Positions 4,702 to 47,567 of a stretch of 64,000 nucleotides of DNA are shown one piece after another (position 1 is the first letter of the stretch; each line of letters starts with the position of its first letter). The position numbers and the translations under genes were made by a program. The notes under the pieces were generated by a model that made no database searches, was not told the DNA's origin, and was given only the letters and a program-made list of their open reading frames with translations. Origin of the DNA: Ignavibacteriota bacterium (GTDB lineage: Bacteria; Bacteroidota; Ignavibacteria; UBA10030); contig OY969585.1 of NCBI GenBank assembly GCA_963701295.1, positions 1,728,001 through 1,792,000 on the forward strand. Direction: 5' to 3'.

Positions 4702-5733
4702 TCAGGTGTTCAAGACCTTAGATGACTGTCTGACAATAAATTCTGTCTCTAAAATAACTCGTTCAATCGGCATAATCGTCGAAGATTCGATATTACGGAT
4801 TAAAATTTCTGCAGCCATTATTCCAATCTCTTGTTGAGGTGCCCTTATTGTTGTCAGGGGAATTGGATACATTTTCGCATAATAAATATCATCGTTTCCA
4901 ATAATAGATATATCGTCGGGTACGCGAATATTGAGTTCCTTCAATGCCAGCATAACTGCAAGAGCTTGCTGATCATTGAAACAAACAATTGCGGTCGGGT
5001 AATTATCACGGTTTCTATTCTTAAAATACTCGAGGGTTTTATCAAAACATTCTTCAAAATGAGATCCCACCGAGATGATCATATCTTTATGAAAGACCAA
5101 TGTGCTTTCACTGAAAGCATAACGGAATCCTTCCATTCGTTCTTGTGTATGTGATGACTGTGGAGGACCTGCAAAATGTACAATTTTTGTGTGACCGCTA
5201 TCTATTAAATATTTCACTGCTCTTTTTATTGCCTTTTTGTTGTCAATTGCCACAACGTTTGCTTGAATCCCCTTAACATCTTCTAATAAGACAAAAGGAT
5301 AATTAATCATTTTTAGTTTAAAAAGATGTTCAATTTCAGCTGTTCCTTCAACTATGGGAGCGATAATAATGCCTTTGATATCCTTCGTGGAGAAAAGCCG
5401 AGATAAATTCTTTTCACTTTCATGACTGTCATCTGAACTGGAAACAATGACAGAATATCCTTTGCTGTTTGCATATTCACTTACACCTTTTGCTATCGTA
5501 GTGTAGAAAGGATAAGTTAAATCCTTGATGATTATTCCAATACTTTTATCATAGTTTTCATTTTTAAAATTTCTTGCCACACCGTTGGGACGGAAGTTGA
5601 GTTCTTTCATTACTTCTAATATGAAATCTCTTGTTGCTGGCTTGACCGTTTTCTTCGCATTTATGACAGCAGAAACAGTTCCTTTTGAAACTCTCGCTCG
5701 CTTAGCAACATCCTCAATGGTTATCTTTTTCAT
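4702..5733 (-). CDS. LacI-family transcriptional regulator (probable xylan-locus repressor)
   Basis: HTH ITIEDVAKRARVSKGTVSAVIN and sugar-binding domain motifs NDQQALAV and VPDDISIIGNDD. Divergent from GH43. Confidence 0.95.
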   Translation of the reverse strand: MKKITIEDVAKRARVSKGTVSAVINAKKTVKPATRDFILEVMKELNFRPNGVARNFKNENYDKSIGIIIKDLTYPFYTTIAKGVSEYANSKGYSVIVSSSDDSHESEKNLSRLFSTKDIKGIIIAPIVEGTAEIEHLFKLKMINYPFVLLEDVKGIQANVVAIDNKKAIKRAVKYLIDSGHTKIVHFAGPPQSSHTQERMEGFRYAFSESTLVFHKDMIISVGSHFEECFDKTLEYFKNRNRDNYPTAIVCFNDQQALAVMLALKELNIRVPDDISIIGNDDIYYAKMYPIPLTTIRAPQQEIGIMAAEILIRNIESSTIMPIERVILETEFIVRQSSKVLNT

Positions 5734-5899: not shown

Positions 5900-5913
5900 T
5901 TGAAACAGTTCAA
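5900..5913. promoter_or_regulatory. Putative LacI operator TTGAAACAGTTCAA (copy 1)
   Basis: Near-palindrome in the lacI/GH43 divergent spacer. Identical copy at 6012 and a one-mismatch copy at 16588. Confidence 0.7.
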
Positions 5914-5983: not shown

Positions 5984-6025
5984 TTGCTATTACAATGGAA
6001 CATCTTTAGTATTGAAACAGTTCAA
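5984..6025 (+). promoter_or_regulatory. Putative sigma70-type promoter (TTGCTA-17 bp-TAGTAT) overlapped by operator copy 2 (6012-6025)
   Basis: -35 at 5984-5989 and -10 at 6007-6012. TTGAAACAGTTCAA starts at the last base of the -10 box. Confidence 0.6.
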
Positions 6026-9825: not shown

Positions 9826-9879
9826 TTGACATTTAGAAAAAAAATCATTACTTACACGAGTAAGTAATCGAGTAAGTAA
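9826..9879 (+). promoter_or_regulatory. Promoter (-35 TTGACA 9826-9831) with palindromic operator TTACTTAC-ACGA-GTAAGTAA (9848-9867) and direct repeat CGAGTAAGTAA
   Basis: Perfect 8-bp inverted repeat over the expected -10 region. CGAGTAAGTAA occurs at 9857-9867 and 9869-9879, just before the lacI ATG. Confidence 0.65.
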
Positions 9880-9886
9880 GGATATT

Positions 9887-10900
9887 ATGGCATTTCATAC
9901 TCAAACAGATATCGCAAATAAACTCAAAGTCTCACGCGTGACAATTTCAAAAGCTCTTCGGGATCATCCTGATATTTCTCCTGAAATGAAAAGGCGTGTG
10001 AAAGAAGCTGCCGAAGAATTTGGATATACTCCAAATCTTATCGCTAAAAACTTAACCACAAAGAAAACTCTCACCATTGGAATTGTTGTTCCCGATCTTG
10101 AAAATAGTTTTTTTTCATATGCCGTAGATAGTATAATCGATGCTGCTTCGGAACATCATTACCATACGATTCTTACAGTCTCGAGGGAAAACGAGCAGAA
10201 TGAAAAGTCTAACATTCAAAGTTTGATAGGTATGCGAGTCGACGGGTTATTGGTCTGCGTCTCTCAACGTACGTCCGATCCTCATGTCTTCGAAGAAGTG
10301 AAAAAAAAGAATATTCCATTTGTTTTCTTTGATCGTCAACTAGAAGGGATAGGTTTTAAAAGTATCACATTCAATGACAAGATTGGTGCAATCGATGCTC
10401 TAGATCAAATCATTAAAAATGGGTATTCACGCATTGCACACTTTGCTGGATATATGAATGTTAGCATCGGCCAGAAACGGTGTGAAGGATATAGAAACGC
10501 TTTAGAGAATAATGGATTGAAGGTTGATCCGGCTTGGATTCTTGAGGCAGGATTTGAAATACAGGACGGATACAATTCCTTCATGAAATTATATCAAACA
10601 AAGAAAATACCTGAAATCATTTTTGCAGTGAATGATCGTGTGGCATTAGGTGCATACAAAGCGATACAGGAAGTTGGCATGGCCATTCCAAAAGATATCG
10701 GCATAATGGGATTTGGATTTAACGAAACCGCGCAGATGTTTTCACCGACATTGTCAATTATTCATCAAGATCCTCGTAAACTTGGAACTGCTGCGTTGAA
10801 TGTACTCATCGAAGAGATACAAAACATTGGTCAGAAAAAACCTCGTCAAGTTACTATAGAAGAAGAATTTATTTGGAACAATTCAATTATAAAAAAATAA
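9887..10900 (+). CDS. LacI-family transcriptional regulator
   Basis: HTH TQTDIANKLKVSRVTISKAL; motifs YTPNLIAKNL, NDRVALGA and IPKDIGIMGF. Confidence 0.95.
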   Translation: MAFHTQTDIANKLKVSRVTISKALRDHPDISPEMKRRVKEAAEEFGYTPNLIAKNLTTKKTLTIGIVVPDLENSFFSYAVDSIIDAASEHHYHTILTVSRENEQNEKSNIQSLIGMRVDGLLVCVSQRTSDPHVFEEVKKKNIPFVFFDRQLEGIGFKSITFNDKIGAIDALDQIIKNGYSRIAHFAGYMNVSIGQKRCEGYRNALENNGLKVDPAWILEAGFEIQDGYNSFMKLYQTKKIPEIIFAVNDRVALGAYKAIQEVGMAIPKDIGIMGFGFNETAQMFSPTLSIIHQDPRKLGTAALNVLIEEIQNIGQKKPRQVTIEEEFIWNNSIIKK

Positions 10901-10916
10901 CATTGAGAATAAGATT

Positions 10917-11921
10917 ATGAAAAAAATCATTGTTGCTGGAGCCGGCGGGTTTATCGGCGGTCATTTGACAAAAGCATTGAGCACTATGGGGCACAAAGTG
11001 CGCGCAGTGGATATTAAACCGCTGAACAAATGGTATCAAGTTCATTCTGGCGTCGAAAATATGATCCTCGACTTGCGCGTCAAAGATAACTGTTATCAAG
11101 CAGTGAATGGTTGTAACGAGGTCTTCAATCTTGCAGCGGACATGGGTGGTATGGGATTTATAGAGACTCATAAAGCAGCATGCATGCTCAGTGTGTTGAT
11201 CAACACGCATATATTAATGGCAGCAAAGGACTGCGGGATTGACCGATTATTCTATGCATCATCTGCTTGTGTGTACAACGGAGAAAAGCAAACTGATCCC
11301 AACAATCCCGGACTCAAAGAAGCTGACGCATATCCGGCGCTTGCCGAAGATGGATATGGCTGGGAGAAACTATTCAGTGAACGCATGTGTCGTCATTTCA
11401 GTGAGGACTTTGGATTGGTGACACGTGTTGCACGATTTCACAATGTGTATGGACCGTTTGGCACATACGACGGTGGCAGAGAAAAAGCTCCGGCAGCTAT
11501 TTGCAGGAAGGTAATTGATGGGAAAATATATGGGAAGAAAGATATAGTGATTTGGGGGGACGGACATCAGACCAGAAGTTTTATGTACATCGATGATTGC
11601 GTCAAAGGTGTGCTTGATATTATGTACAGCACCATTATGGAACCGATCAATCTTGGTAGCAGTGAAATGGTTTCCATTAACCAATTAGTTGATTATGTGG
11701 AAGAGATTGCCAATTACAAGATGGAAAGGAAGTACGATCTGAAAGCGCCCAAAGGTGTTCGGGGACGCAATAGTGACAACACACTGATTAAGAAATATTT
11801 GGGCTGGGAACCATTCATCCCATTAAAGGTCGGACTAAAGAAAACGTATGATTGGATCAATGAACAAATGATGAGCAACAATGGAAAAGATAGCAAAGCA
11901 GTTGTATTCAATGAGAACTAA
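10917..11921 (+). CDS. GDP-mannose 3,5-epimerase-like extended SDR
   Basis: GAGGFIG, AADMGGMGFI, ASSACVY, YGWEK, GGREKAPAAICRK and GVRGRNSDNT are signature motifs of GME enzymes. Confidence 0.88.
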   Translation: MKKIIVAGAGGFIGGHLTKALSTMGHKVRAVDIKPLNKWYQVHSGVENMILDLRVKDNCYQAVNGCNEVFNLAADMGGMGFIETHKAACMLSVLINTHILMAAKDCGIDRLFYASSACVYNGEKQTDPNNPGLKEADAYPALAEDGYGWEKLFSERMCRHFSEDFGLVTRVARFHNVYGPFGTYDGGREKAPAAICRKVIDGKIYGKKDIVIWGDGHQTRSFMYIDDCVKGVLDIMYSTIMEPINLGSSEMVSINQLVDYVEEIANYKMERKYDLKAPKGVRGRNSDNTLIKKYLGWEPFIPLKVGLKKTYDWINEQMMSNNGKDSKAVVFNEN

Positions 11922-11939
11922 GCCTTTGGAAACGATACA

Positions 11940-13076
11940 TTGAACGGAAAAAAAGTTCTCGTTAGCGGTTGTTATGATTTACTGCATGCTGGTCACATTG
12001 CTTTCTTCAAAACGGCCGCTCAGTTTGGCAAACTATTCGTAGCTGTCGGCGCGGATGAAAATGTTCGTTTGTTAAAAGGAAAGGCGCCATACTATTCTCA
12101 AGAAGAAAGAGTTTATATGGTTAACTCCGTCCGCTATGTCGAAAGCGCCTTTATTGCATCAGGTTCGGGTATGCTAGACTTTGGACCCGATATTGAACGG
12201 ATCAAACCCGATATTTTTATTGTGAACCACGATGGCCATACTCTAGACAAAGAAGCATTGTGCAAAAAATTCTGTATCGAATATAAAGTATTGGAAAGAA
12301 TTCCAGAACCGAGACTTCCGGTGCGGGCAAGTTCGTCTACAAAACAAGAATTACAATTTCCATATAGAATTTGTTTAGCCGGTGGTTGGATGGACCAACC
12401 ATGGGTTTCGGAAATTTATCCTGGTAGCGTTGTTGTTGCTCAATTGTGTCCGACAATTGAATTCAATGACCGTTCTGGTATGGCGACCAGTTCAAGAAAA
12501 ATCGCTGTTGAAATTTGGGGAAATAGACTTCCAGACGGAAATCCAATTAACAATGCAAGAATTTTATTCGGTGCTGAAAATCCTCCTGGTTCAAAGTACA
12601 TTTCCGGTTCACAAGATCACATTGGCTTGCTGAATCAGGGAATCAGCCGTCTTTATTATAAAGGCAAATATTGGCCTGATAAAATTGATTCTACAAGAGA
12701 CGAAGATATTTGCGATTGGCTTTCTAATGTAATTCATTTAATTCCCCTGGAACCTAGGCCGGTCGGCTATGATCCCCTCAAAGAGAAAAAACTTACTATC
12801 AACAATGTTAAAGAACTTGGCGATGCAGGCGAACAATGCTGGAAAAGCATTCTTCGGAAAGACGCCGCAGGTTTGGGCCAGTCGATGACAAAATCTTTTC
12901 TTGCATGGAAAAAGATGTTCCCTTACACTGTTCCGGAATATGTTATGAAAGAAATGGAAGAGAAATATTTACCTCATTATCTTGGTGCCATAACTTCTGG
13001 CAGTGGCGGAGGCTATATGGTTGTTGCGTCGGAAATAGAAATAGATGGATCTCTTAAAATCAAAGTTAGGTCATAA
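11940..13076 (+). CDS. Fusion of HxGH-type nucleotidyltransferase (cytidyltransferase-like) and GHMP-family sugar kinase
   Basis: N-terminal VSGCYDLLHAGH..LKGKAPYY..ER motif. C-terminal PYRICLAGGWMD, RSGMATSS, SGSQD and SGSGGGY resemble fucokinase/HddA-type GHMP motifs. TTG start. Confidence 0.78.
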   Translation: MNGKKVLVSGCYDLLHAGHIAFFKTAAQFGKLFVAVGADENVRLLKGKAPYYSQEERVYMVNSVRYVESAFIASGSGMLDFGPDIERIKPDIFIVNHDGHTLDKEALCKKFCIEYKVLERIPEPRLPVRASSSTKQELQFPYRICLAGGWMDQPWVSEIYPGSVVVAQLCPTIEFNDRSGMATSSRKIAVEIWGNRLPDGNPINNARILFGAENPPGSKYISGSQDHIGLLNQGISRLYYKGKYWPDKIDSTRDEDICDWLSNVIHLIPLEPRPVGYDPLKEKKLTINNVKELGDAGEQCWKSILRKDAAGLGQSMTKSFLAWKKMFPYTVPEYVMKEMEEKYLPHYLGAITSGSGGGYMVVASEIEIDGSLKIKVRS

Positions 13077-13167
13077 ATATTGAATAAATTCAAATGCTTT
13101 TACAAAACTGTATTTAAGATATATATATTTTTAGAATGCGTAGTCAATTATTTTAAAGGAAGTCATT

Positions 13168-14508
13168 ATGAATTTGTCCAAGATGTTTAAAACGGAAGAA
13201 GGTAAAAATTATGTATTCACGTTTGCACTCGTCAGCACATTATTCCTATTATGGGGAACTTGTAATGGAATGATCGATGTGATGGACAAGCACTTTCAGG
13301 ATCAGCTGCATCTGACGAAAGCACAGTCAGCATGGGTGCAGTTTGCACATTATTTGGGTTATCTTTTAATGGCCATGCCTGCAAGTTGGCTGGCGCGCAA
13401 ACTTGGTTATAAAGGCGGTATCATTTCAGGGCTGCTGCTCGTAGCGCTGGGCGGATTCTGGTTTGTCCCGGCTACATATATTTCGTCATTCTGGGCGTTC
13501 CTGCTGGGTGTGTGTGTCATCGCAATGGGATTGACAATTCTTGAGACGGTAGCTAATCCCTATACTACTGTGCTCGGTCCTAAGAACTTCGCAGCAGCGC
13601 GTATCAATTTTGCGCAATCGTTCAATGGCGTTGGTTGGATTTTCGGCCCGATCATTGGTGGAGTGTTCTTCTATTCTGCAGGTGGCTCAGAGGTCGCTCA
13701 AGGTCAACTCTACATTCCGTACCTTGCGGTGGCAGTCATCGTCCTTGCTATGTCCGTGGTCTTCTTCTTCGCCAACGTCCCCGACCTTAATACGGAGGAT
13801 GAGTATCACTTAAGTGATACAACTGCAACCAATGTCAAGCGGTCCATCTGGTCACACCCCCACTTCATCGGCGCAGTCGCAGCTCAGTTCTTATACGTCG
13901 CGGCGCAAGCGGGCATTTTTAGTTTTTTCATTAACTATATAACTGAGGAAATGCCTTCAATTTCGCATGGACTATCAAGCAGTTGGTTCTTTAAAGACCG
14001 CGCTATGTTGCGTGAAGGTGCTTACTACGTGAACGAGCAAGGAGCTACTTTTCTGCTCGGTACAATTGGATTTCCGCTCTTCCTGATCGGCCGCGCCACG
14101 GGGGCGGCAATTCTGAGGAAATTGAAAGCGCATCGGGTGCTGGGTACGTACGCAATTGCTAATGTTTTTCTCTGCGGCATTGTCATTCTTAGACTTGGTT
14201 GGATTTCGGTTGCAGCGATGTTTCTGAGTTTTTTTTTCATGTCGATTATGTTTCCGACGATATTCGCACTTGGTATCTACGGTCTTGGCGTACAGGCGAA
14301 GAGAGCATCAGGTTTCATCGTCATGGCTATTATTGGCGGAGCAATCATGCCGAAGCTTATGGGTTACCTCGGAGATGTCTACAATATGTCTGTCAGCTTT
14401 CTCATGCCACTAGGTTGCTTCGCGCTCATCGCGATGTATGGATATTCGTGGCCTAGACTGAGCAAGGCGGATGCTCAAGAAAGTTTTTCCAGTGTAAAAG
14501 GACACTGA
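13168..14508 (+). CDS. FucP-like MFS sugar:H+ symporter
   Basis: About 12 hydrophobic segments. LFLLWG, ILETVANPY, RINFAQSFNG, QFLYVAAQ, MSIMFPTIF and MAIIGGA are characteristic of the fucose-permease family. Confidence 0.9.
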   Translation: MNLSKMFKTEEGKNYVFTFALVSTLFLLWGTCNGMIDVMDKHFQDQLHLTKAQSAWVQFAHYLGYLLMAMPASWLARKLGYKGGIISGLLLVALGGFWFVPATYISSFWAFLLGVCVIAMGLTILETVANPYTTVLGPKNFAAARINFAQSFNGVGWIFGPIIGGVFFYSAGGSEVAQGQLYIPYLAVAVIVLAMSVVFFFANVPDLNTEDEYHLSDTTATNVKRSIWSHPHFIGAVAAQFLYVAAQAGIFSFFINYITEEMPSISHGLSSSWFFKDRAMLREGAYYVNEQGATFLLGTIGFPLFLIGRATGAAILRKLKAHRVLGTYAIANVFLCGIVILRLGWISVAAMFLSFFFMSIMFPTIFALGIYGLGVQAKRASGFIVMAIIGGAIMPKLMGYLGDVYNMSVSFLMPLGCFALIAMYGYSWPRLSKADAQESFSSVKGH

Positions 14509-16112
14509 ATGTGAAGGTAAGACAACATTAAGAAGAATTTTATCTTATTTCATAGGATGAAAATTATTCAATAGAATCACAGACTATAACCAAACCGTCA
14601 GAGAACCCTCTCAAAGTATTTATTAATCCCCCCGAATGTGCAGAGCCTTGTGTTTTGTGGATGCGGATAGGGTCGAACATAAGTAAAGAAGGCATTACGA
14701 AAGATCTGGAAGCTTTGAAAAAAGCAGGATTTAAGAGAACAATTATGTTCAGTCTGGCAGATATTACTACTCCTTGGGTCAGTGAGTATAGACAAGAGCC
14801 CGACACCGGAAATTATTTCCTGGACAGAACCCTTGTGGAAATTGGTGCACCATGCAGTGGAAGAATCAGAACGCTTGGGTATGGATTTTGGCGTGTTCAA
14901 TGGCCCAAGTTATGAATCAAGCGGTGGTGTATGGATGACACCTGAGTTATCGATGCAGGAAATTTGCTGGTCTCAAAAAAGGAATGCCGGCGACAAACAT
15001 ATAAGTATAATTCTTGACCGGGCTTCTGTTGATCCCCATGCGAACCATCCTTATCCTTTATTTAATCCCAAAAACAGGCTTAGTAGAAAAGCCGATAATA
15101 GAGGCACGGAAAACGTACTACAAAGATATTACAGGTACTGGCAGTTCCGGCAAAGGGAATAGTTTCCCAAAAAGTATCATTAGTCTGACCGAAAAGATGA
15201 AATCAAATGGGTAGTTGGGATGGGATGCTCTAACCGGAGACTGGATAATCTATAGGTTTGGCTATACAACGGGGGGGCGTTAATACAGCCTGCACAATGG
15301 AAGGCGACAGGTTTAGAATGCGATAAAATAAGCCAGAATGCAGTAGATTTCCACATGAATCATGTGTGATAGGTGAAATTCGAATTTAAAGTATATTCAC
15401 AGAAATAGTGATAAATATGGATGTATATTTTGTTGCGAATACAGCTTGCGAAGCCGGTTCTGCAACTTATACTTTTAAAATATTGGGGATGCAACCTGAT
15501 CTTTGGGACCTGTTACTGGAGCGATGCGAAGTCTCTCACAATTTGAAATCAGTAATGACATAACTTTAATTCCACTTAATTTTGCTGAGGCTCAAAGTTT
15601 TTTTTATCGTCTTTCGGAATAAATCTCCCAGTTCAGGTTCAAGTGGAAAAAGTATTTTTCCTTCCATGAAAGAAATAGTGACTATTAATGAACCATGGCA
15701 GGTTCAATTTGATTCTGCATAGGGAAGTCCTGCCAAACCTGTTACTTTTACAACACTCATTGACTGGACAAACCATCCTGAACCAGGCATTAAGTACTTT
15801 AGTGGTACAGCAGTTTACCAAACATCGTTCGATATACCTACTTCACAAATCTCAGATAAACTTTCTGTATTGAAGTCACTAATGTATGGGTCAACCGCTT
15901 ATAGGAAACGAACAGGAGCCCGCTGATTGCAAATGGTCAGCAGGTCATTTTGGAGGTTCCTTTTTACAAGAATTCCCTGATCGGTTCCTAAAAAATCAAT
16001 CTCGCCCTTCTAAGGAGGATATTGTTCTACAACTTGGAATTATTTTACCAACGATTCCTCATTAATTCCTTCCGGTTTGTTAGGACCCGCGAGGATAATG
16101 GCAGGGGATTAA
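14509..16112 (+). pseudogene. Degraded GH106 (alpha-L-rhamnosidase-like) pseudogene
   Basis: Fragments in shifting frames: FINPPECAEPCVLW..SKEGITKDLEALKKAG; HHAVEESERLGMDFG..SSGGVWMTPELSMQ; GDWIIYRFGYTT; GLECDK; DVYFVAN; DWTNHPEPGIKYFSGTAVY; VTNVWVNRLIG; PSGLLGP. Frameshifts, an in-frame stop (TAG 15212-15214) and large internal deletions are present. The 5' boundary is approximate. Confidence 0.8.
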
Positions 16113-16559: not shown

Positions 16560-16601
16560 TTGACATTTAAAGTCAAGATTTATTACATTGAAACGGTTCA
16601 A
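16560..16601 (+). promoter_or_regulatory. Promoter (TTGACA-18 bp-TACATT) overlapped by operator copy 3 TTGAAACGGTTCAA (16588-16601)
   Basis: Same promoter/operator geometry as upstream of GH43. A weaker site AAAGCGTTTCAA lies at 16652-16663. Confidence 0.7.
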
Positions 16602-23973: not shown

Positions 23974-25479
23974 ATGATGAAAATTTTTAAATCGATATTC
24001 TGTATCAAGAGTTTTGCAGGGTTCCTGTACTGCATGAGTATTCCGCTTTTAGGACAAATGAAGTCTGTCATCCCTGCCGGCGGTTCTCTCGGTATAGAAA
24101 ACGGCAATGATGCGTTAGCTATAGTGGGCGAAAAAATAATTACGGTAAGAGATTTCAGGGAACGCAGTGAATTTACGGTTCGCCCTCAGAATTTTAAAGA
24201 CAAGAATATCACATTAAACAATTTAATTTTTGAAAAGATTCTTACCCTAGAAGCAGAACAAGAGGCGAAGTCTGCAGTACATCCTGGGATGCAGGCCATG
24301 CTAGATGGCATTAAAGAACAACAGATGCGGGCTCAGCTCTACTATGAGGTTGCTTATAACAAAGTGAAATTCAATTCCGCTGAATTGGAAAAAGCGTACA
24401 CGCTGTCCACTCGTGAATACGAACTCGAGTTTTATCGCTTACCGAATAAGAAGTTCGCATACAAAATTCAAACAGCGATCGATGCTGGACCTACACGAGC
24501 CGATTCCTTATTTAAGGAAGTGGAAGAGATTCTGGGAAAGAAACCTGTCCATAAAACAAAATTTGACGATAACGATGACGATGCTATTCATAAAGCATTG
24601 TACACGGAGGCGCTGGATCCGGGGAAGATTGTTGGACCTGTGAGACTCGGTGATGGCGGATATATCGTTATGAAAGTGTTGACATGGGTTGATTATCCTC
24701 TTATAAGCGGTGAAGAACAGCAAGCAAGGTGGAATAAAGTAGGGGACATTATCCAAAACCGAAAAGCAGAGCAGCAGTGGCGCTCCTACCAGGCAAGTGT
24801 CATGAAGGGGAAGCGATTAGTATTTGATAAGCATTCTTTTGATGTGTTATCGGCCTGGGCGATGGAAAATTATTATTCCCACAAACAAAACGATTCTCTG
24901 AATATTCACATTGCAGAAATTGAAGGAAAGAAACCGGAAATTGATTTTAACAACCCTTTCTTTACGCTCGATAAAAAAGTATGGACTCTAAAAGACTTTC
25001 GAAAAGTGCTTCGTACTCATCCCCTCGTCTATAGAACGACTGCGCTTGACAGTACAAATTTTCGGAAACAATTCAAATTGGCAATCATTGATTTGATGCG
25101 GGATCATTATTTGACACAGGCGGCTTATAAGCGTTCTTTGGACAAGCATGAAAACGTGAAAAATACAGTCGGAATGTGGAGAGATTCTTTTTTGGCAACG
25201 GAAAAAGCAAAGAGTATTGTTGATACGGGCGTAGCTCAGGGGATCGTCAAGAGAAACGATGAGCGCGGCTTATCGGAATTTTGGAATTCGCAAGTGATCA
25301 TATTGCAGCAGAAATATGGCAAATCGATCTGGATAAACCATCCTTTGCTGGATCGTCTTGCATTAACAAGAATTGATATGATTGCCTTAAAACCAGGTTT
25401 TCCCTATCCTCTTGAGGTCCCTCAATTCCCGACATTGATCGTTTCCGAGAATCTTGACTATGCGACACTTAAAAAATGA
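23974..25479 (+). CDS. SurA/parvulin-like periplasmic protein (putative foldase), xylan cassette
   Basis: Signal-like N-terminus. The LAIVGEKIITVRDF..LNNLIFEKILTLEA pattern resembles SurA/PrsA N-domains, and GKIVGPVRLGDGGYIVMKV resembles a degenerate rotamase. Parallels ORF 47568. Confidence 0.55.
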   Translation: MMKIFKSIFCIKSFAGFLYCMSIPLLGQMKSVIPAGGSLGIENGNDALAIVGEKIITVRDFRERSEFTVRPQNFKDKNITLNNLIFEKILTLEAEQEAKSAVHPGMQAMLDGIKEQQMRAQLYYEVAYNKVKFNSAELEKAYTLSTREYELEFYRLPNKKFAYKIQTAIDAGPTRADSLFKEVEEILGKKPVHKTKFDDNDDDAIHKALYTEALDPGKIVGPVRLGDGGYIVMKVLTWVDYPLISGEEQQARWNKVGDIIQNRKAEQQWRSYQASVMKGKRLVFDKHSFDVLSAWAMENYYSHKQNDSLNIHIAEIEGKKPEIDFNNPFFTLDKKVWTLKDFRKVLRTHPLVYRTTALDSTNFRKQFKLAIIDLMRDHYLTQAAYKRSLDKHENVKNTVGMWRDSFLATEKAKSIVDTGVAQGIVKRNDERGLSEFWNSQVIILQQKYGKSIWINHPLLDRLALTRIDMIALKPGFPYPLEVPQFPTLIVSENLDYATLKK

Positions 25480-25581
25480 TATTGAAGATAGATTACAGTA
25501 CTGACAAAGACATCAATAAGTTTGATTCATGTACATTGTTTTTTGATATAACTTATGGTAAACAAAGGAAGGGTTGTTAAA

Positions 25582-28569
25582 ATGAAAAAACTAACTACAA
25601 TCTTTTTGTCAATTTTCTTCCTCCTTGCTGCAAGTGCAAGTATGCTCTATGCTGGAGTAGCAGGAAAAATTTCTGGCAGGCTGATCGATAAAGCAACGCA
25701 AGAGCCATTAATAACGGCAAATGTCATCATTAAGGGAACCTCGCTAGGTGCATCAAGTGATATCGATGGAAGTTATTCGATATTAAATATTCCTCCTGGG
25801 GTCTATACTGTCAGTATATCCGTCGTTGGATATCGAAAGGTACAGATTGAAAATGTCCGTGTGAATATAGATCTTACGACTACCGTTGATGTCGCGCTTG
25901 AACCAGAAGCCGTTGAAATGGATGCTGTCGTTATTTCAGCGGAGAGACCTCTGGTGACAAAAGATATGACATCGTCTCTTTCAACCGTTACATCTGAGCA
26001 GATTCAAAATCTGCCGGTCGATAACATTGCACAAGTTCTGAGATTAAATGCGGGTATAGTCATGAGTGGAGGTCAGATTACGATTCGCGGCGGCAGGACG
26101 GGTGAAGTGGCATATTGGGTTGATGGTATTTCATCGACTGATGTCTATAATGGGACACAGGGTGTGACGGTGGAAAACTCTTCTATTCAGGAACTTCAGA
26201 TTGTAAGCGGTACCTTCAACTCTGAATACGGACAGGCAATGTCGGGTATTGTCAATATTGTCACGAAAGATGGCGGCAGCAATTATACCGGGCAGATAAA
26301 AATTTATGGAGGGAGTTACTTAAGCGGTGATGATGTGTTTAGTCTGTACAAACATCTTGTTACGGCGGAAAATCCTGTTGCCAATTCGAATGGGATTAAT
26401 ACAACACAGATCGTAAGCAGCGAAAAATATTATCCGTTGAAAAAAATAAATCCTCTTTATAGCGGAGAATTTACACTGAGCGGTCCGGTGCCTTTCTTGG
26501 AAAATAATTTAAAATTCTTTGCAAACGGTCGTTACTATTCAGACGATGGATATTTTTATGGGGCAAATTGGTACTTGCCAGATGGAGTTGCAGGTGATTC
26601 CTCTATAGTGACGATGAATCCATATCAGAATATCTCCGCCCAGGGAAAACTCACCTACAACTTAATGGGTGGCAATATACGGATGAGCTATGAGTTCTTC
26701 GGGAATAAGTGGAAGAGAGACAGGACTTACTATCCGTTTTCATCGAGCGATTTTCCTTACAATTTTAATGCTCATGATTATTTGTACGATCCGTATGGAT
26801 TGCCAAAATCCTTTGGCGATGCATACACTCACCTTTTTTCATTGAGTCATGTTTTGTCTTCATCAACCTTTTACGAACTGCGTGTCAGCAGATATCAATC
26901 AGAAATGAATCAATACGTATTTGAGAATCCAACACAAGCAGTAAGATATTTGGACAGTACAGGCACGGTCGATCCAAATGGTCCAGATGGCTATCTCCAA
27001 CCAAACAATAGTGGAGGTTATTCAGCACCCGCTTCCAACAGTTTCAATAACAAAGGTATGGATCCAACCCATACAAGCCGCAGTACGGCTTATTGGGCCG
27101 CAAAATTCGATCTTACCAGCCAGGTTAATAAATCTCACGAAATGAAATTCGGTGCAGAAGCAAGACTTCATGAACTCACATTAGATAGATATCAAATCGT
27201 GAGCGCAACGGATGCAAGCGGAACGATAATAACTCCATTTGTTCCGGCTGTGCCAAATCAAAGCAGCATTTACAGAAGTTTGTATGATAGAAAACCGCAA
27301 GAGTATTCTGCCTATGTGCAGGACAAAATGGAGTACAACCAAATCATCGTTAACATTGGATTGAGGTACGATTATTTCGATGCAAATGCATCAATGCTGA
27401 CAGATCCAACTGACCCTGATATATACTCACCAGTTAAACCTGAACACATCTATGCCGGATGGATCCCTTTACCAGACAGTTATTCCGGAACACTCGATCA
27501 ATGGATCGCAGATAACTTAGCAAACGGAACCTTCAGGGAATATACTCCCGATGAACGAAGAGCTTTTATGCAGCAAAAAGTCAGTGCCAAGATGGCTCTA
27601 AGCCCGCGGCTCGGCATTGCGTTCCCGATTACCGATAAAGGAGTTATCCATTTTTCCTATGGGCATTTCTTCCAAATTCCGCAATTCCAGTATCTCTATG
27701 CTAATCCCGATTTCAAAATCAGCAGCGGCAGCACTTCCAGTGCCACACTCTTTGGAAATCCAGATCTGAAACCTCAAAGGACTGTGATGTATGAACTTGG
27801 ATTGCAGCAACAGCTTTCTGATAACATTGGAATAGATGTGACAATGTTCTACAGAGATGTACGCGATTGGGTGGGAACAAGCAGTGTGCCAATTTCAGTA
27901 TATGGGGGAAGTGCGACGTATGCGATGTTTGTGAATAAAGACTATGAAAATGTGCGCGGAGTGACATTAAAATTCGAGAGACGAATGAGCAATAATTTTT
28001 CATTCCGTGCCGATTATACATACCAGATTGCTGATGGAACGTATTCTAATCCGACGGATGCCTTCAATGCGATATCCAGCAATCAAGCGCCAGTCTTAGC
28101 TCTCGTTCCTATGAATTGGGACCAGAGACATACTCTCAATGCGCAATTGATCTACAGTAATTCCGATTGGATTATTTCACTTATCGGCACATACTGGAGC
28201 GGACAGCCATACACGCCAAGTTTTCCCTCGAGTGAAGCGACAGGTTCCTCAGCAGTTACAGGCCTGACGACAAATAGCGAGAATATGCCAGACCAGAAAA
28301 ATATTGATTTAACAATCAGCAAAAAAATCCAAATGAGCCATTCTCTCTCTCTCGAATTTTTTATGAATATTTATAACTTACTCGATGAAAGAGATGCAAC
28401 GAATGTTTATTCCGACACAGGAAACCCGGATTACACGACAAACCCTCGGCGACTTTCGCAAGTATCATATAATTCAGATAGGGTAAGCACACCGGAAGAT
28501 AATATGAATCAACCCGCTTGGCATACTGCACCGCGCCAAATTCAACTTGGTATAACATTAGGATTCTAA
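25582..28569 (+). CDS. TonB-dependent receptor (non-SusC type) with N-terminal carboxypeptidase-regulatory-like domain, xylan cassette
   Basis: Signal peptide, plug IRGGRTGEVAYWVDG..IQELQIVSGTFNSEYGQAMSGIVNIVTK, NIGLRYDYF, GNPDLKP and a C-terminal Phe. Start re-called to ATG 25582. Confidence 0.9.
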   Translation: MKKLTTIFLSIFFLLAASASMLYAGVAGKISGRLIDKATQEPLITANVIIKGTSLGASSDIDGSYSILNIPPGVYTVSISVVGYRKVQIENVRVNIDLTTTVDVALEPEAVEMDAVVISAERPLVTKDMTSSLSTVTSEQIQNLPVDNIAQVLRLNAGIVMSGGQITIRGGRTGEVAYWVDGISSTDVYNGTQGVTVENSSIQELQIVSGTFNSEYGQAMSGIVNIVTKDGGSNYTGQIKIYGGSYLSGDDVFSLYKHLVTAENPVANSNGINTTQIVSSEKYYPLKKINPLYSGEFTLSGPVPFLENNLKFFANGRYYSDDGYFYGANWYLPDGVAGDSSIVTMNPYQNISAQGKLTYNLMGGNIRMSYEFFGNKWKRDRTYYPFSSSDFPYNFNAHDYLYDPYGLPKSFGDAYTHLFSLSHVLSSSTFYELRVSRYQSEMNQYVFENPTQAVRYLDSTGTVDPNGPDGYLQPNNSGGYSAPASNSFNNKGMDPTHTSRSTAYWAAKFDLTSQVNKSHEMKFGAEARLHELTLDRYQIVSATDASGTIITPFVPAVPNQSSIYRSLYDRKPQEYSAYVQDKMEYNQIIVNIGLRYDYFDANASMLTDPTDPDIYSPVKPEHIYAGWIPLPDSYSGTLDQWIADNLANGTFREYTPDERRAFMQQKVSAKMALSPRLGIAFPITDKGVIHFSYGHFFQIPQFQYLYANPDFKISSGSTSSATLFGNPDLKPQRTVMYELGLQQQLSDNIGIDVTMFYRDVRDWVGTSSVPISVYGGSATYAMFVNKDYENVRGVTLKFERRMSNNFSFRADYTYQIADGTYSNPTDAFNAISSNQAPVLALVPMNWDQRHTLNAQLIYSNSDWIISLIGTYWSGQPYTPSFPSSEATGSSAVTGLTTNSENMPDQKNIDLTISKKIQMSHSLSLEFFMNIYNLLDERDATNVYSDTGNPDYTTNPRRLSQVSYNSDRVSTPEDNMNQPAWHTAPRQIQLGITLGF

Positions 28570-28588
28570 TCGAAAATTAGGAGATAAC

Positions 28589-31500
28589 ATGAAAAATAAA
28601 TTCTTTTATTCTATTTTTGCTGTCCTTTCATGGATTGGGTTATCCAATTCAATTGTGCAAGCCCAGATGCGATACCTTCATGGAGATGATCGAGAATACC
28701 GAATCGGAATGCATTCCGGGAATCAATTCAGGACAACTTTTTTCAATGATGGAACATGGGGTGGAAATACGAGCAATACACCAGGAATGAGCATTGTAAA
28801 GACTCAAATTGCTGGTGAATGGCCTATTAATTCAGGCCACTGGTACCTTATTGATGGAGATACTTTTGTCCTTTCGGAAGTTGCTGACAATTATGATCCG
28901 CTTGAACATTATTTCTTGGCAGACTCGGGTAAAGTGGGTAGAGTTCATCACATTCAGAGCACCGTCAAAGCTGCACCTGGAGGAGGTACTGTAGGTGATC
29001 AAGATCCAAACACTAAAAAGTGGTGGACTTTCTTACCGTTACCGGGATTTGCAAATCCAAGAGATCAGATCATTGCTATGGCAAAGGGAGACCAACAATG
29101 GTATGACGATGCAAAGTCAGCGGGATCCTGGCCTCTCTTCTGGCCAGATATTAGAGATCCACAAAACCCTTACAAAATATATTCCGCCGATGGGTGGGCT
29201 GGTTCCTGGAATGGATATTTTGGCAGAAATAAATTTAATGCTGATGAAGAGAGTTACTTTGTTGCCGATGATTATGCAAAACAGAAGTTCCCTTCGTTCA
29301 GGCCGGATACAACAGATGTACTTAGAGGCGGATTAGGCATACGAATGTATGTGAGAGGATTTCAATGGGCAAAAATGCCCGTACAGGATGCTTTATTTAT
29401 CGTGAGCGATCTGCAGAATATTGGAACCTATCAGCACAATAAAGTGGTGTTCGGATATAAGATTGGCAACAACATGGGTCAAACAAACGGTGGAGCCGAT
29501 GCAGGTGATGACGGCGGCAGTTATAGTATTGTTGATAATTTATGTTGGACGTGGGATCAAAACGGTCTTGGCGCTTCAGATTGGGGACCAACTCCTGTTG
29601 GAATATCAGGCGCCGCGCTTCTGGAGACCCCGGGTAATCCTTTTGATGGAATCGATAATGATAATGATGGAAACCCAAATAGTCCCAATTATGGTATGAA
29701 AAACAAAGAAACAGGTCCCGTGACGCTACATACCGTTAATGGACCACAAACATTTTATGCTGGTTCAGGGCCGACTATTTCAACGAATACGTTTGCACCG
29801 AAGGTGCTTGGACTTAACGACCAGATCGTATTGATTGATTACAAAGACCCACATTATAAGCGAACTGTTACAACGTTCAAACAGGCTCTTCTCGCTCAGG
29901 GCAAAACATTGGCCACGGATACTCTTCTCATTCCATTTGGTGGAATCACGTACAAGTTTTGGGTTGGAGATACATTGAAAGAAATCGGCGATAATTTATT
30001 CGATGATAATTTAAATGGTATCATTGATGAAAACAGAGGAGTTACAAATCCATCGACTGGAGTAACGACCTATCTGTATCTAGACCATAAGTACATTGAC
30101 TATTTGAACCCTGATGTAACCACAAATGGATCGCTGAATCCTCTTATTGATGAACGCAGGGATGATGGTATTGATAACAATGATAATTGGGATCCTGCTA
30201 AAGATGATGTTGGCCAGGATGGTTTAGGTCCTACAGATCTCGGTTACCCGGGGCCTGATATCGGAGAAGGTGACGGGAAGCCGACACCGGGAGAACCCCA
30301 TTTTGATAAAACAGATATCAATGAAAGCGACATGATAGGGTTGACGAGCTTTAATTTGTACCTATGGGCTCAGAAAGACCAGTTTGGAGACGGGACACAG
30401 CAAGATGATGAAGGTTTTTGGAATAGGCTTGCTCCAGGCTCTTTTTATGCCTACCCCAGTGCAGACAATGTCGAATTATTATTCGGTTCCGGATATTTCC
30501 CGTTGCCCCCGGGTGATCTTGAAAGAATTTCCTATGCGTTTATTGTTGTGAGCGGCCCTGCGGGCGGTTGGAAAGGCGGTTCTGGCGAAGTTGCACCACC
30601 TGATAATTTACTTTTGGAAAAGACCAATGTGCAATCGGCTTACGATCAAAATTATAATTTTGCCAAGGCTCCTTTTATACCTGCCGTTATAGCTGTTGCA
30701 GGTGATAAGAGAGTGACTTTATTTTGGGATGATATAGCAGAATCTTCTGTTGACGCAAACAATGTTGTAAATTTTGAGGGATACAAAATTTATCGTTCCA
30801 CAGATCCTGGCTGGAATGACATGACTCCAATTACCGACGGCCATGGTAACGTGGTAATGCGCCAACCGTTAGCACAGTATGATCTTGATGATACATATTC
30901 TGGCTATATTTCTGCAACTCCAAATACAGGAGTTCGTTTTTGGTTAGGGAGTAATACCGGTCTGAGACATTTTTATATCGATACAACTGTAACGAATGGA
31001 ACTACCTATTATTATGCAGTGACGTCGTACAACTTTGGCGATGTCAATAAGGGAATCGATCCTTCTGAATGCGTTAAATACGTTGCCGTTCAATCATCTG
31101 GCGATGTCGAAAAAGGGAAGAATGTGGTTGTCGTTCGACCGGAAGCACCTGCCGCAGGATATGTCCCAGCAAATTTTAAAGATTCAAAAGTCACAGCCTT
31201 ACCTGGTAGCACGGGTACAGGAGTAGCTGGTTATAAAATTTTGGATGATACTCGAATTAAGAATAGCCATACCTATCAAATCACATTCAAAGATACAGTC
31301 ACTGGTATAGCAAAAGGTTTAGCAGAATCGACAAAGAGTTTTACACTTACCGATATCACCGTGATAGACACTCCGAAAATTTTATTAAAGGATAACTCGT
31401 TTACGGGAGACAATGGAGGACTTCCGGTGACAGATGGTTTTCAGTTATCGTTCTCCAGTAATCCTGAAAAACTGAGCTATGATTCAGCAAGTTCTGGATG

Positions 31501-32311
31501 GAGTAGATCGGGTATTCCAGCATTCGAAATGAATCCATTTGCAGTGCCCAATATGCCAGTGAAGCTTATGGCTGGTGATTTTAAAATTATCTTTAGCGAT
31601 GTAGGCGTTAGTACTTCAAAACGATTTAAACGAGCTTCTACGATGCTCCCAGCAATACCGGTGAACTTCAAAATATATAATACAACAACAAATAAAGAAG
31701 TGGATTTTGCCTTTTATGAACTCGCCTATTTATTACCCAGTGAAGTAGCAGGTGACTCTGATAATTTTAATATAAATTTTAAAAATGGTAGATCCGATCA
31801 AATAATATTCTTAAATGATGGAGATTCAGTTGCAAGTTGGCAGGTTGACTTTGTGTATCCATCTCAAGGAGGTACCAGTATGCCTGGGCCAGGAGATAGC
31901 CTAACTCTTAAACTGAATAAACCATTTCTTTCTAACGATACGTTAATTTTTACAACTCTTGCTTCAAGCATTGATAATGAAATGGCAAAAACAGATATGG
32001 GAAAGATAAAAGTAGTTCCTAATCCATATATCGTAACAAATACTTGGGAGCCCCATAATCCTTATTCTAACGGGCGCGGAGAACGGCAACTTCATTTTAT
32101 TCATCTACCTGCAAAATGCACGATAAAAATATTCAATGTAAGGGGTCAATTAGTGAATACGATTGAACATAATAATCCGCTTAATGATGGTACTGAGATA
32201 TGGAATATGTTGTCAAAGGATAATCTAGAAATCTCTTATGGTATTTATATATTTCATGTAGGAGCAGCAGGTGTAGGTGAGAAAATTGGAAAATTTGTGG
32301 TGCTCAAATAG
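28589..32311 (+). CDS. Large secreted hypothetical protein (1240 aa) with Asp-rich Ca-binding-like motifs, an FN3-like domain and a variant T9SS-like CTD
   Basis: Signal peptide; DGIDNDNDG, DDNLNGIIDE and DDGIDNNDNW motifs; AVAGDKRVTLFWD..FEGYKIYRS..YYYAVTSY; C-terminus IKVVPNPY..FIHLP..WNMLSK..GIYIFHV..KFVVLK. Clear paralogue of 40328-44176. Confidence 0.85.
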   Translation: MKNKFFYSIFAVLSWIGLSNSIVQAQMRYLHGDDREYRIGMHSGNQFRTTFFNDGTWGGNTSNTPGMSIVKTQIAGEWPINSGHWYLIDGDTFVLSEVADNYDPLEHYFLADSGKVGRVHHIQSTVKAAPGGGTVGDQDPNTKKWWTFLPLPGFANPRDQIIAMAKGDQQWYDDAKSAGSWPLFWPDIRDPQNPYKIYSADGWAGSWNGYFGRNKFNADEESYFVADDYAKQKFPSFRPDTTDVLRGGLGIRMYVRGFQWAKMPVQDALFIVSDLQNIGTYQHNKVVFGYKIGNNMGQTNGGADAGDDGGSYSIVDNLCWTWDQNGLGASDWGPTPVGISGAALLETPGNPFDGIDNDNDGNPNSPNYGMKNKETGPVTLHTVNGPQTFYAGSGPTISTNTFAPKVLGLNDQIVLIDYKDPHYKRTVTTFKQALLAQGKTLATDTLLIPFGGITYKFWVGDTLKEIGDNLFDDNLNGIIDENRGVTNPSTGVTTYLYLDHKYIDYLNPDVTTNGSLNPLIDERRDDGIDNNDNWDPAKDDVGQDGLGPTDLGYPGPDIGEGDGKPTPGEPHFDKTDINESDMIGLTSFNLYLWAQKDQFGDGTQQDDEGFWNRLAPGSFYAYPSADNVELLFGSGYFPLPPGDLERISYAFIVVSGPAGGWKGGSGEVAPPDNLLLEKTNVQSAYDQNYNFAKAPFIPAVIAVAGDKRVTLFWDDIAESSVDANNVVNFEGYKIYRSTDPGWNDMTPITDGHGNVVMRQPLAQYDLDDTYSGYISATPNTGVRFWLGSNTGLRHFYIDTTVTNGTTYYYAVTSYNFGDVNKGIDPSECVKYVAVQSSGDVEKGKNVVVVRPEAPAAGYVPANFKDSKVTALPGSTGTGVAGYKILDDTRIKNSHTYQITFKDTVTGIAKGLAESTKSFTLTDITVIDTPKILLKDNSFTGDNGGLPVTDGFQLSFSSNPEKLSYDSASSGWSRSGIPAFEMNPFAVPNMPVKLMAGDFKIIFSDVGVSTSKRFKRASTMLPAIPVNFKIYNTTTNKEVDFAFYELAYLLPSEVAGDSDNFNINFKNGRSDQIIFLNDGDSVASWQVDFVYPSQGGTSMPGPGDSLTLKLNKPFLSNDTLIFTTLASSIDNEMAKTDMGKIKVVPNPYIVTNTWEPHNPYSNGRGERQLHFIHLPAKCTIKIFNVRGQLVNTIEHNNPLNDGTEIWNMLSKDNLEISYGIYIFHVGAAGVGEKIGKFVVLK

Positions 32312-36305: not shown

Positions 36306-36349
36306 TTGACTCTTAAAAAGAAAATCCGGAATTTTTGGAAGCGCTTCCA
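36306..36349 (+). promoter_or_regulatory. Promoter region (-35 TTGACT) with perfect LacI-type operator TGGAAGCGCTTCCA (36336-36349)
   Basis: 14-bp perfect palindrome with central CG, 21 bp upstream of the lacI ATG. Confidence 0.8.
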
Positions 36350-36370
36350 CAAAAATTGAACGTTGAGATC

Positions 36371-37405: not shown

Positions 37406-37478
37406 TAAACGGAATGAGTATAGATTTTTATTCATACAACAAATTGATAGGAAAAAACAGGAAATAAGGAGAACCATT

Positions 37479-40325: not shown

Positions 40326-40327
40326 TT

Positions 40328-44176: not shown

Positions 44177-44188
44177 GCGGAGACGGTT

Positions 44189-45223: not shown

Positions 45224-45377
45224 CCCATGAGTTATGATGTGTAATAAATTCAATCACCGAAACAATCATCAATAAGGAAAGGGATCATACTATTGAAAGC
45301 GTACATGGAAAGAGGTCAAAACAATTGTTTGAAACAAAACTATTAATATCTTTTCAAAAAAGATAGAAGGAGGAATT

Positions 45378-47489: not shown

Positions 47490-47502
47490 GCAATGATCCA
47501 TA

Positions 47503-47532
47503 GATAAGGCGGGAAGAGATTCCCGCCTTATC
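47503..47532 (+). terminator. Perfect 13-bp hairpin with GAGA tetraloop (terminator or mRNA stabiliser)
   Basis: GATAAGGCGGGAA-GAGA-TTCCCGCCTTATC begins 14 bp after the stop codon, followed by only a weak U-tract (ATTTG). Confidence 0.65.
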
Positions 47533-47567
47533 ATTTGATGATTCCTTCCTGTGTTGCATCGCATCGA

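Follow-up and report, generated by a model that had tools for sequence, protein, structure and literature searches.

A predicted nucleotide-sugar route for L-galactose catabolism in a LacI-headed operon of an Ignavibacteriota bacterium

Introduction

Can an epimerase known from biosynthesis serve a bacterium in eating an L-sugar? This question is raised by an operon in a stretch of 64,000 nucleotides from an Ignavibacteriota bacterium (the window), which is part of a single-contig 3.64-Mb genome that is 99.3% complete. A LacI-family regulator, an epimerase resembling GDP-mannose 3,5-epimerase (GM35E or GME), a fusion of a nucleotidyltransferase with a GHMP kinase, a FucP-like permease and a broken GH106 gene all lie there on the + strand (Table 1), the first four separated by 16, 18 and 91 nt. 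An earlier reading made from the DNA letters alone (the sequence-only reading) had described these five genes, and we found each of them where it was placed.

The GM35E reaction is reversible and favours GDP-mannose, and the roles described for it in the available sections of PMC8787198 and PMC6678494 are biosynthetic (ascorbate, cell wall, lipopolysaccharide (LPS) and antibiotics); the string "catabol" does not occur in the available text of the GM35E review. We propose, with a probability of roughly 0.7, that the operon serves nucleotide-sugar catabolism of L-galactose, which would pass through β-L-galactose 1-phosphate, GDP-L-galactose, GDP-D-mannose and mannose 1-phosphate to glycolysis.

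In the proposed route, FucP would import L-galactose, the fusion would phosphorylate it with ATP to β-L-galactose 1-phosphate and then form GDP-β-L-galactose with GTP, and the epimerase would turn the latter into GDP-α-D-mannose. ManC would split GDP-mannose with pyrophosphate, returning the GTP and releasing mannose 1-phosphate, which phosphomannomutase and phosphoglucose/phosphomannose isomerase (PGI/PMI) would carry via mannose 6-phosphate to fructose 6-phosphate, at a net cost of one ATP per sugar. The host would supply ManC and the following enzymes from genes outside the operon; in many Bacteroidales an extra ManC would act from inside it. The LacI protein would repress the operon from its predicted operator until L-galactose or a derivative appears, and the likely source of the sugar would be side chains of cereal-type xylan, from which a GH95 enzyme encoded elsewhere in the genome would release it. 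The data show the genes with their domains, folds and conserved residues, the neighbourhoods, the palindrome and the gene swap; all substrates, the nucleotide, the direction of the epimerase and the ManC exit are predictions. We regard GTP use by the HxGH-type nucleotidyltransferase domain and the exit through ManC as the weakest links.

Exchange for an oxidative gene set in relatives

The best evidence for the route is a gene swap in relatives, which suggests that both gene sets serve one purpose and act on one sugar. The oxidative L-galactose route runs through the dehydrogenase BVU_0219 and the L-galactonate dehydrogenase BVU_0222 to D-tagaturonate, and the lgu cluster of Luteolibacter is also assigned to it, according to the available part of PMC12632266. 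We surveyed 71 genomes of one Bacteroidales family (that of G401) for fusions of the window's clade (clade A), for fusions of its sister clade (clade B) and for a trio of aldo-keto reductase (AKR), amidohydrolase and Zn-dehydrogenase. Clade A fusions were found in 15 genomes and the trio in 21 (18 verified by context; G454, G467 and G474 counted on a match to one trio member alone). No genome had both, with an overlap of 4.4 expected; clade B and the trio met in six genomes, with 5.9 expected, and clades A and B met in five. Among the 29 genomes with a shared LacI, 12 had clade A, 14 had the trio, three had neither and none had both, and at least three changes are required on the LacI tree. 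The tree of the RhaM-type mutarotase did not resolve the swaps.

The DNA of trio locus L233 aligns with that of clade A locus L059 at 74-78% identity across LacI, ManC-GH29 and the flanks; between LacI and ManC-GH29, the former holds the trio and the latter the epimerase plus fusion. The genes of trio loci have best matches in clade A loci at 64-87% identity for LacI, 70-85% for the mutarotase, 52-81% for FucP and 45-87% for GH29. Both types of trio AKR have an L-galactose dehydrogenase as their best PDB match, and two trio loci also hold UxaA/UxaB, as expected for an oxidative route through D-tagaturonate. E. coli LgoD was too blunt as a probe for the oxidative route, since it hit 57 of the 71 genomes; among 20 of its hits checked by context, 18 held the trio, and L226 and L236 had unrelated dehydrogenases and were not counted. 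Together, the survey suggests that bacteria have a second, so far undescribed means of using L-galactose.

Neighbours and clades of the fusion

Neighbouring genes were counted in the best 80 of the 157 genomic relatives of the window fusion, the closest of which are labelled Ignavibacteriae or Ignavibacteriota. The epimerase was found by tblastn in 78 of these 80 loci (76 by calling of open reading frames (ORFs), plus L058 and L064), and in all 76 with a called ORF it ends at most 400 nt upstream of the fusion. Hence, the gene grouping goes beyond chance. LacI was present in 49 loci, GH29 in 40, ManC in 32-33, FucP in 31, a RhaM-type mutarotase in 23, GH95 in 13 and FucI in three, and tblastn found gmd, fcl and the oxidative trio in none. 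The extra nucleotidyltransferase of the operons is ManC-type (PF22640), and operon ManC is a second copy in all five genomes checked.

The glycosidases of these operons are consistent with an L-galactose substrate. For the GH29 of L059, the best PDB matches were 7snk, 7ljj and 7lnp (E 6e-89), two of them labelled exo-α-L-galactosidase, and the rest were 2e-55 or weaker; of the 41 GH29 ORFs in its cluster, 21 share at least 63% identity with it and the others 30-41%. All 11 GH95 ORFs (nine loci) with a readable motif have Thr at the position of Thr370 of the xylan α-L-galactosidase BACOVA_03438. Separately, two tandem divergent GH95-like genes (~900 aa, without the usual motif) follow the operon in L019, L020, L028, L037 and L038, and L046, L065 and L076 encode, within or beside it, a conserved, secreted-looking 550-aa protein for which Pfam gave no match.

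The clade tree was built from 164 full-length sequences around the window protein and around a 45% identical paralogue of the same genome, a sampling centred on these two that may miss intermediates; 12 of 176 cluster members had been excluded as partial or unrelated. The family as a whole holds at least 5,039 clusters, and clades A and B split with support 100. In the 82 loci of clade A there were 78 epimerases, 50 LacI genes, 32 ManC genes and no gmd or fcl, and in the 82 loci of clade B, which lie on shorter contigs, we counted gmd 15 times, fcl 11, FucI five and the epimerase seven. In polysaccharide clusters (L115 of G188, L119 and L175-L204), clade B fusions immediately precede gmd and fcl, some with a mutarotase. 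Hence, the fusion family as a whole is not purely catabolic, and clade B fusions resemble a small replacement for Fkp in the salvage of fucose. The sequence-only reading would have counted it against itself if pairs of epimerase and fusion lay mainly in LPS or capsule loci; this does not hold for clade A (gmd and fcl in none of 80 loci), while clade B fusions are often found in polysaccharide loci.

The clade B paralogue of the window's genome lies directly after a class II aldolase gene (G000 C1:1217273-1218418, L081), an arrangement that recurs in L126-L129 and L155. In metagenome locus L138, a clade B fusion, an epimerase, a clade A fusion and FucP stand together in a single run of genes, which suggests two substrates.

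These counts bear on anabolic salvage, in which L-galactose would enter the pools of GDP-L-galactose, GDP-mannose and GDP-L-fucose for surface glycans and little of it would reach glycolysis. Salvage would agree with the gmd and fcl neighbours of clade B, with the place of ManC outside the window's operon and with the synthetic direction in which ManC normally works. It would also agree with a second GME-like gene of the genome (45% identical), at C1:2.92-2.94 Mb, whose neighbours, named by their translated starts, are glycosyltransferases and genes like ugd, gmd and fcl; this gene lies in a surface-polysaccharide cluster, and therefore biosynthesis has its own epimerase copy. However, clade A loci have no gmd or fcl, and the epimerase-fusion pair is exchanged for a purely catabolic trio. 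A dedicated repressor, a permease and glycosidases are typical of catabolism, and among 64 representatives of the other co-oriented neighbours no GT1/2/4/9 or flippase family was found at E 1e-15, although one was ArnT/PMT-like (in L014 and L015, glycosyltransferases lie on the opposite strand). We consider salvage unlikely and favour L-galactose catabolism.

A second alternative takes L-fucose (or D-arabinose) as the substrate: the fusion would stand in for Fkp in compact form and produce GDP-L-fucose, with the epimerase as a passenger or as a source of GDP-D-rhamnose. The permease, mutarotase, GH29 and GH95 do carry fucose-type family names, the kinase is of the fucokinase type (below) and FucI occurs in three loci. 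In addition, Amuc_1591 of Akkermansia muciniphila, a "fucose-nucleotidyltransferase" with an N-terminal adenylyl/cytidylyltransferase domain, a flexible linker and a C-terminal FKP-fucokinase-like domain, confers a sensitivity to D-arabinose that is rescued by L-fucose, according to the available text of PMC13313206. The same text has Amuc_1591 transcribed with murJ and proposed as biosynthetic, and the word "epimerase" is absent from its main text. Fucose salvage leaves the epimerase in 78 of 80 loci unexplained, though, and the trio that replaces the pair leads to D-tagaturonate, which by inference from the pathway in the available part of PMC12632266 depends on a hydroxyl at C6, absent from fucose. 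The two clades occur side by side in L138 and share a genome in five of 71 cases, which implies different jobs, and a fucose role fits clade B better. A fucose substrate for the window's operon is thus very unlikely, and L-galactose remains the preferred one.

The permease of the window passes TIGR00885 (291.5 bits, cut-off 280.4) and fails the stricter NF007524 (236.5 against 427 bits), and its orthologues, 75-92% identical, adjoin fusions of both clades. After it, the GH106 remnant measures ~1.55 kb against ~2.9 kb for an intact gene and is broken into several pieces by stops and frameshifts in the assembled sequence. Its pieces scored 38 bits (cut-off 29) and 21.2 bits (below the cut-off) with PF17132, and the C-terminal pieces match an intact 981-aa GH106 (blastx, E 2e-15). 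At 38% identity or more, no GH106 was found in any of the 80 related loci, and the operon does not include GH106 as a conserved member. Close to the oxidative-trio locus L221 there is an intact GH106; hence, GH106 is not a mark of the nucleotide-sugar route.

Here one of the proposals of the sequence-only reading lacks support, namely that L-mannose (or L-rhamnose) freed by GH106 would be activated and 3,5-epimerised to NDP-D-galactose. L-Mannose and D-galactose are indeed a 3,5-epimer pair, the remnant does follow the permease, and the mutarotase of the relatives is RhaM-family. But the gene is a pseudogene without a counterpart, the single locus with a distant GH106 piece (L034) has no epimerase, L221 points away from the link, and the kinase keeps the L-galacto-pattern residues of FKP, which is restricted at C2-C5 (see below). 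We find this alternative highly improbable; the L-galactose version of the same chain of import, phosphorylation, NDP-sugar formation and 3,5-epimerisation to GDP-D-mannose, also put forward there, gains support from the kinase residues, GH29 and GH95, the extra ManC and the gene swap.

The epimerase

The best PDB match of the window epimerase was plant GDP-mannose 3,5-epimerase (2c59, E 4.5e-96), and the next family was UDP-glucuronate decarboxylase at 3e-28. The hallmark residues of GM35E listed in section 5 of PMC8787198, of which the available text was used, are S143, C145, Y174, K178, N203, K217, R243 and R306 of the plant enzyme, and every one has its counterpart here (S116, C118, Y147, K151, N176, K190, R220 and R284). 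These eight residues are invariant in all 83 aligned homologues, in which the segments GGREKAPAA and WGDG also show little or no change.

The NAD-binding GxxGxxG motif is present as GAGGFIG at residue 8, with S116, Y147 and K151 as the Ser/Tyr/Lys triad, and the Cys/Lys acid-base pair (C118 and K190) is accompanied by the acidifying R284 and by N176 and R220. GDP-fucose synthase has His and Lys where GM35E has this pair (available text of PMC8787198). We rejected a GalE-type C4 epimerase, since TIGR01179 scored 65.7 bits against a cut-off of 262.3 and the extra Cys/Lys pair of 3,5-epimerases is present. The window epimerase is likely a member of GM35E by its residues, with a predicted specificity for GDP.

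The fusion protein

The fusion is a protein of 378 aa that begins with TTG, a start that aligns with the ATG starts of its homologues. Its structural model (mean pLDDT 85.9) has two domains joined by a flexible linker at 129-136. The N-terminal domain matches PF01467 at residues 8-99 (E 6e-12) and the folds of 3glv (Z 17.5), glycerol-3-phosphate cytidylyltransferase 2b7l (Z 17.4) and HldC 5xf2 (Z 15.8), and is an HxGH nucleotidyltransferase that resembles TagD and HldC; its D13, H16, G18, H19, E56 and R57 are invariant in all 164 homologues. GTP is the nucleotide that we predict for it.

The C-terminal GHMP kinase has no Pfam match here and was detected by fold and profile searches. A single-sequence PDB search with this domain alone gave mevalonate kinase as the best match, at E 0.34, and a profile built from 42 sequences ranked FKP fucokinase first (E 5e-10), with heptose kinases at 4e-6 to 0.02. 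The top three fold matches were all anomeric sugar kinases (heptokinase WcbL, Z 21.9; FKP 9iip, Z 20.4; galactokinase, Z 20.1). R592, W599, D601 and G759-x-Q761-D762 of FKP align to R143, W150, D152, G223, Q225 and D226 of the fusion, which are invariant in all 164 full-length homologues. FKP takes only sugars of the L-fucose-like C2-C5 pattern, L-galactose included, and makes GDP-L-galactose from the latter, as stated in the available part of PMC11982464. The aligned site residues would therefore favour an L-galacto sugar and argue against L-mannose and heptose.

The heptose alternative, in which the fusion would be a heptose-7-phosphate kinase and heptose-1-phosphate nucleotidyltransferase for LPS or capsule, draws on the first place of WcbL among the fold matches and on the likeness of the N-terminal domain to HldC. 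In the sequence profile, however, FKP beats the heptose kinases by four or more orders of magnitude, and two aligned heptose kinases (3k85 and 4n3o) have Gly where the fusion family and FKP have the sugar-stacking Trp (invariant W150), for which reason an HddA-type motif I was rejected. RfaE domain II and HldE were likewise rejected (TIGR02199, 50 against 181.5 bits; HldE model, 39.6 against 521), and no heptose-pathway gene was seen among the annotated neighbours. Heptose 7-phosphate as the sole kinase substrate, a possibility that the sequence-only reading had raised against itself, is thus disfavoured by the sequence profiles, and the heptose alternative is barely credible beside an L-galactose kinase.

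The carrier could also be something other than GDP, with the HxGH domain making ADP-, CDP- or UDP-L-galactose, an epimerase that acts on this nucleotide sugar and an exit enzyme other than ManC. Among proteins of solved structure, those related to the N-terminal domain transfer cytidylyl or adenylyl groups, and ManC is missing in 47-48 of the 80 loci and kept beside the oxidative trio in two. Yet the epimerase is far closer to the GDP-specific GM35E than to other short-chain dehydrogenase/reductase (SDR) enzymes and keeps GGREKAPAA and WGDG, the extra nucleotidyltransferase of the operons is ManC-type, and clade B fusions directly precede gmd and fcl, whose products are GDP-sugar enzymes. A different carrier is quite unlikely, and we retain GDP-L-galactose as the predicted product.

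As observations on the family, locus L151 encodes a triple fusion of 595 aa (L151:3930-5714) of a RhaM-type mutarotase, an HxGH nucleotidyltransferase and a GHMP kinase, followed by FucP and GH29, and fusion genes are broken by a stop or frameshift in G260 C11, G562 C1 and G567 C1.

Regulation

Inverted and direct repeat searches at the operon head found a CG-centred palindrome and an overlapping second site (Table 1), and when four mismatches are allowed, the 3.64-Mb genome has no match to the operator other than these two sites. Of 75 related operon heads, 22 have a related site that scores above 20 shuffles, in most cases 26-55 nt ahead of the first gene; eight of these 22 loci had supplied the seed sites. 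The LacI cluster, present in 49 of the 80 loci, forms two clades, and the window's is the one with this operator; loci with the other, divergent clade did not show it. A consensus sigma-70 scan called no promoter and no consensus -10 at the operon head. The LacI of the operon is likely its autoregulated repressor.

A different 14-bp palindrome, TTGAAAC(A/G)GTTCAA, lies at 5900-5913, 6012-6025 and 16588-16601, before GH43 and GH3 genes and near a divergent LacI gene (4702-5733), and is absent from this operon; within one mismatch it has one other match genome-wide, inside a gene. It is likely the operator of the xylan regulon. Because the palindrome at the operon head differs from that flanking the xylan genes, the operon appears to be regulated separately, and it is likely a separately induced module inside the xylan regulon.

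Locus and host genome

The operon is flanked by genes for GH43, CE15, GH3, a GPH permease, GH30, CBM9 and TonB-dependent receptors, consistent with a xylan locus, and no glycosyltransferase or flippase was found among the ORFs and Pfam matches between 9887 and 16112. Both features agree with what the sequence-only reading had described.

Table 1. Features of the operon, with positions in the window
Feature	Position	Strand	Evidence
-35-like hexamer TTGACA, 16 nt before the palindrome; putative promoter element	9826..9831	+	sequence
Predicted LacI operator: palindrome TTACTTACACGAGTAAGTAA (9848-9867) and overlapping second site (9860-9879)	9848..9879	.	repeat search
LacI-family regulator	9887..10900	+	Pfam PF00356 (LacI) and PF00532 (Peripla_BP)
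GDP-mannose 3,5-epimerase (GM35E/GME), predicted to turn GDP-L-galactose into GDP-D-mannose	10917..11921	+	PDB match, kept residues
Fusion, N-terminal HxGH (CTP_transf_like) nucleotidyltransferase domain, residues ~1-130	11940..12329	+	PF01467, fold matches
Fusion, C-terminal 241-aa GHMP anomeric sugar kinase domain, L-fucokinase type, predicted L-galactose 1-kinase	12351..13076	+	profile, fold
FucP-family MFS sugar:H+ permease, likely L-galactose importer	13168..14508	+	TIGR00885
Decayed, internally shortened GH106 pseudogene	14557..16112 (about)	+	three-frame translation, PF17132 pieces, blastx

The genome encodes what the later steps would need: ManC (C1:2040510), three phosphohexomutase matches and a bifunctional PGI/PMI. 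A membrane pyrophosphatase was found and no soluble enzyme of family I, a combination that would help ManC to run backwards. A Thr-type GH95 lies among glycosidase genes at C1:3079528. No match over the cut-off to Fkp (PF07959) was found anywhere in the genome, and a PF02952 hit at C1:3057306 was not taken as FucI, as it lies beside araD- and araB-like genes (judged by eye).

The oxidative L-galactose route also includes a lactonase step. At E 1e-6 with the queries used, the genome has no homologue of the trio, UxaA or UxaB apart from one weak AKR hit, and no lactonase or permease was seen beside its eight AKR genes in translated starts. Two GalK-GalT-like gene pairs are present (G000 C1:1869958-1872166 and 2449549-2451757, judged from translated starts), and therefore an ordinary D-galactose route is separate from the operon.

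Elsewhere in the window, two alike modules of a TonB-dependent receptor, a 1240-1282-aa protein, PorV-like and lipoprotein-like genes lie at 23974-32311, after the xylan genes, and at 36335-49391, within a starch/maltose cluster. The 1240-1282-aa protein had no Pfam match in the first copy, which was scanned; the second module was judged by eye.

Discussion

Several observations weigh against the proposed L-galactose route. Concerning the fusion, to our knowledge no GTP-using HxGH nucleotidyltransferase is known, and the nearest solved relatives of the N-terminal domain use CTP or ATP. Clade A has a variant glycine-rich motif III without the lysine of clade B, the only genetically studied protein of this architecture is called a fucose enzyme (in the available text on Amuc_1591), and the window's type of FucP travels with clade B fusions too. 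The Thr of GH95 is only a possible mark of specificity, its general frequency being without a control. In the host, no RhaM-type mutarotase was found in the genome, and in the clade to which the window belongs the operon does not include ManC.

The swap has its own counterpoints. Its p-values of 0.003 and 1e-5 overstate the case, as the genomes are kin, the trio query was picked after the pattern had been seen and the completeness of the genomes is not given. The matches of the two trio AKR types to L-galactose dehydrogenase are distant (E 5e-11 and 1.6e-21). ManC stands beside the oxidative trio in L222 and L233, where it has no job unless it is a leftover; the LacI of L233 groups within those of clade A, as one would expect of a leftover. 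The Bacteroidales family of the swap has a LacI clade different from the window's and a FucP that is ~30% identical, and the bridge to the window is the orthologous fusion (60-66%) and the epimerase. In the window's own class, 12 of 301 genomes have the fusion and none of 301 matched the trio dehydrogenase at E 1e-60, counts that say nothing on exclusion there.

Our literature search, which covered few subscription papers and no supplements, found no paper describing a GDP-linked L-galactose route. In a broader proposal, which we rate as somewhat better than an even bet, anaerobic Bacteroidota and Ignavibacteria would use an undescribed Leloir-like pathway for an L-sugar, built of a GTP-using fusion, GM35E in reverse and a GTP-neutral pyrophosphorolysis by ManC. 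This pathway would be a drop-in alternative to the oxidative route with a higher ATP yield, swapped several times inside one regulated cassette, and clade B would be a stand-in for Fkp.

If the route holds, it would be a second bacterial route for L-galactose, with a catabolic role for an epimerase so far described as biosynthetic; a large protein family would gain a function, and GTP would join the substrates of HxGH nucleotidyltransferases. It would predict glycan degraders that use L-galactose of cereal xylan, pectin rhamnogalacturonan II (RG-II) or porphyran without oxidative genes. By our reckoning, a sugar sent into glycolysis should bring in more ATP than one sent through the hexuronate route, a gain that would count for fermenters. 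A 378-aa enzyme leading from free sugar to GDP-L-galactose would also be a useful biocatalyst, as the Km of FKP for L-galactose is ~100-fold worse than for fucose (available part of PMC11982464).

Comparison with known systems

The epimerase shares its fold family and catalytic residues with plant GME (2c59) and bacterial MfGM35E. The fusion has the same chain order of nucleotidyltransferase and GHMP kinase as Fkp of Bacteroides fragilis (5yys, 9iip and 9iit), with the residues of the kinase sugar site kept. In contrast to Fkp (949 aa), it is much shorter, its nucleotidyltransferase is HxGH-type (PF01467) where that of Fkp is a PF07959 pyrophosphorylase, Thr602 of Fkp is replaced by Gln (Q153), and it is tied to an epimerase and a catabolic cassette; we therefore rejected its assignment as Fkp, although it would work like Fkp. 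Compared by description and not by sequence, Amuc_1591 has the same architecture (CTP_transf_like domain, linker and FKP-like kinase), and its phenotype, as given in the available text, is a genetic sign of action on an L-fuco-configured sugar.

With the oxidative route, the operon shares the predicted substrate and, in relatives, orthologous LacI, mutarotase, FucP and GH29 genes around it. The two have no enzyme in common and exclude each other in the 71 genomes searched for clade A; redox chemistry leads the oxidative one to the hexuronate route, whereas nucleotide-sugar chemistry would lead this one to glycolysis.

The Leloir pathway for D-galactose uses GalM, GalK, GalT or, in its pyrophosphorylase variant, UDP-sugar pyrophosphorylase, and GalE. 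Both systems combine a mutarotase, a GHMP anomeric kinase, NDP-sugar formation, SDR epimerisation to a mainstream sugar nucleotide, release of a sugar 1-phosphate and LacI control. The operon differs in its L-sugar, its predicted GDP carrier, its double epimerisation at C3 and C5 (C4 in the Leloir pathway), its fused kinase and nucleotidyltransferase, and its lack of a GalT-type enzyme, no such uridylyltransferase being found in the operon or among the annotated neighbours. Hence, the proposed route works like the pyrophosphorylase variant of the Leloir pathway, and in its first half like Fkp, but it is a member of neither, as it has no GalT, no C4 epimerase and no PF07959.

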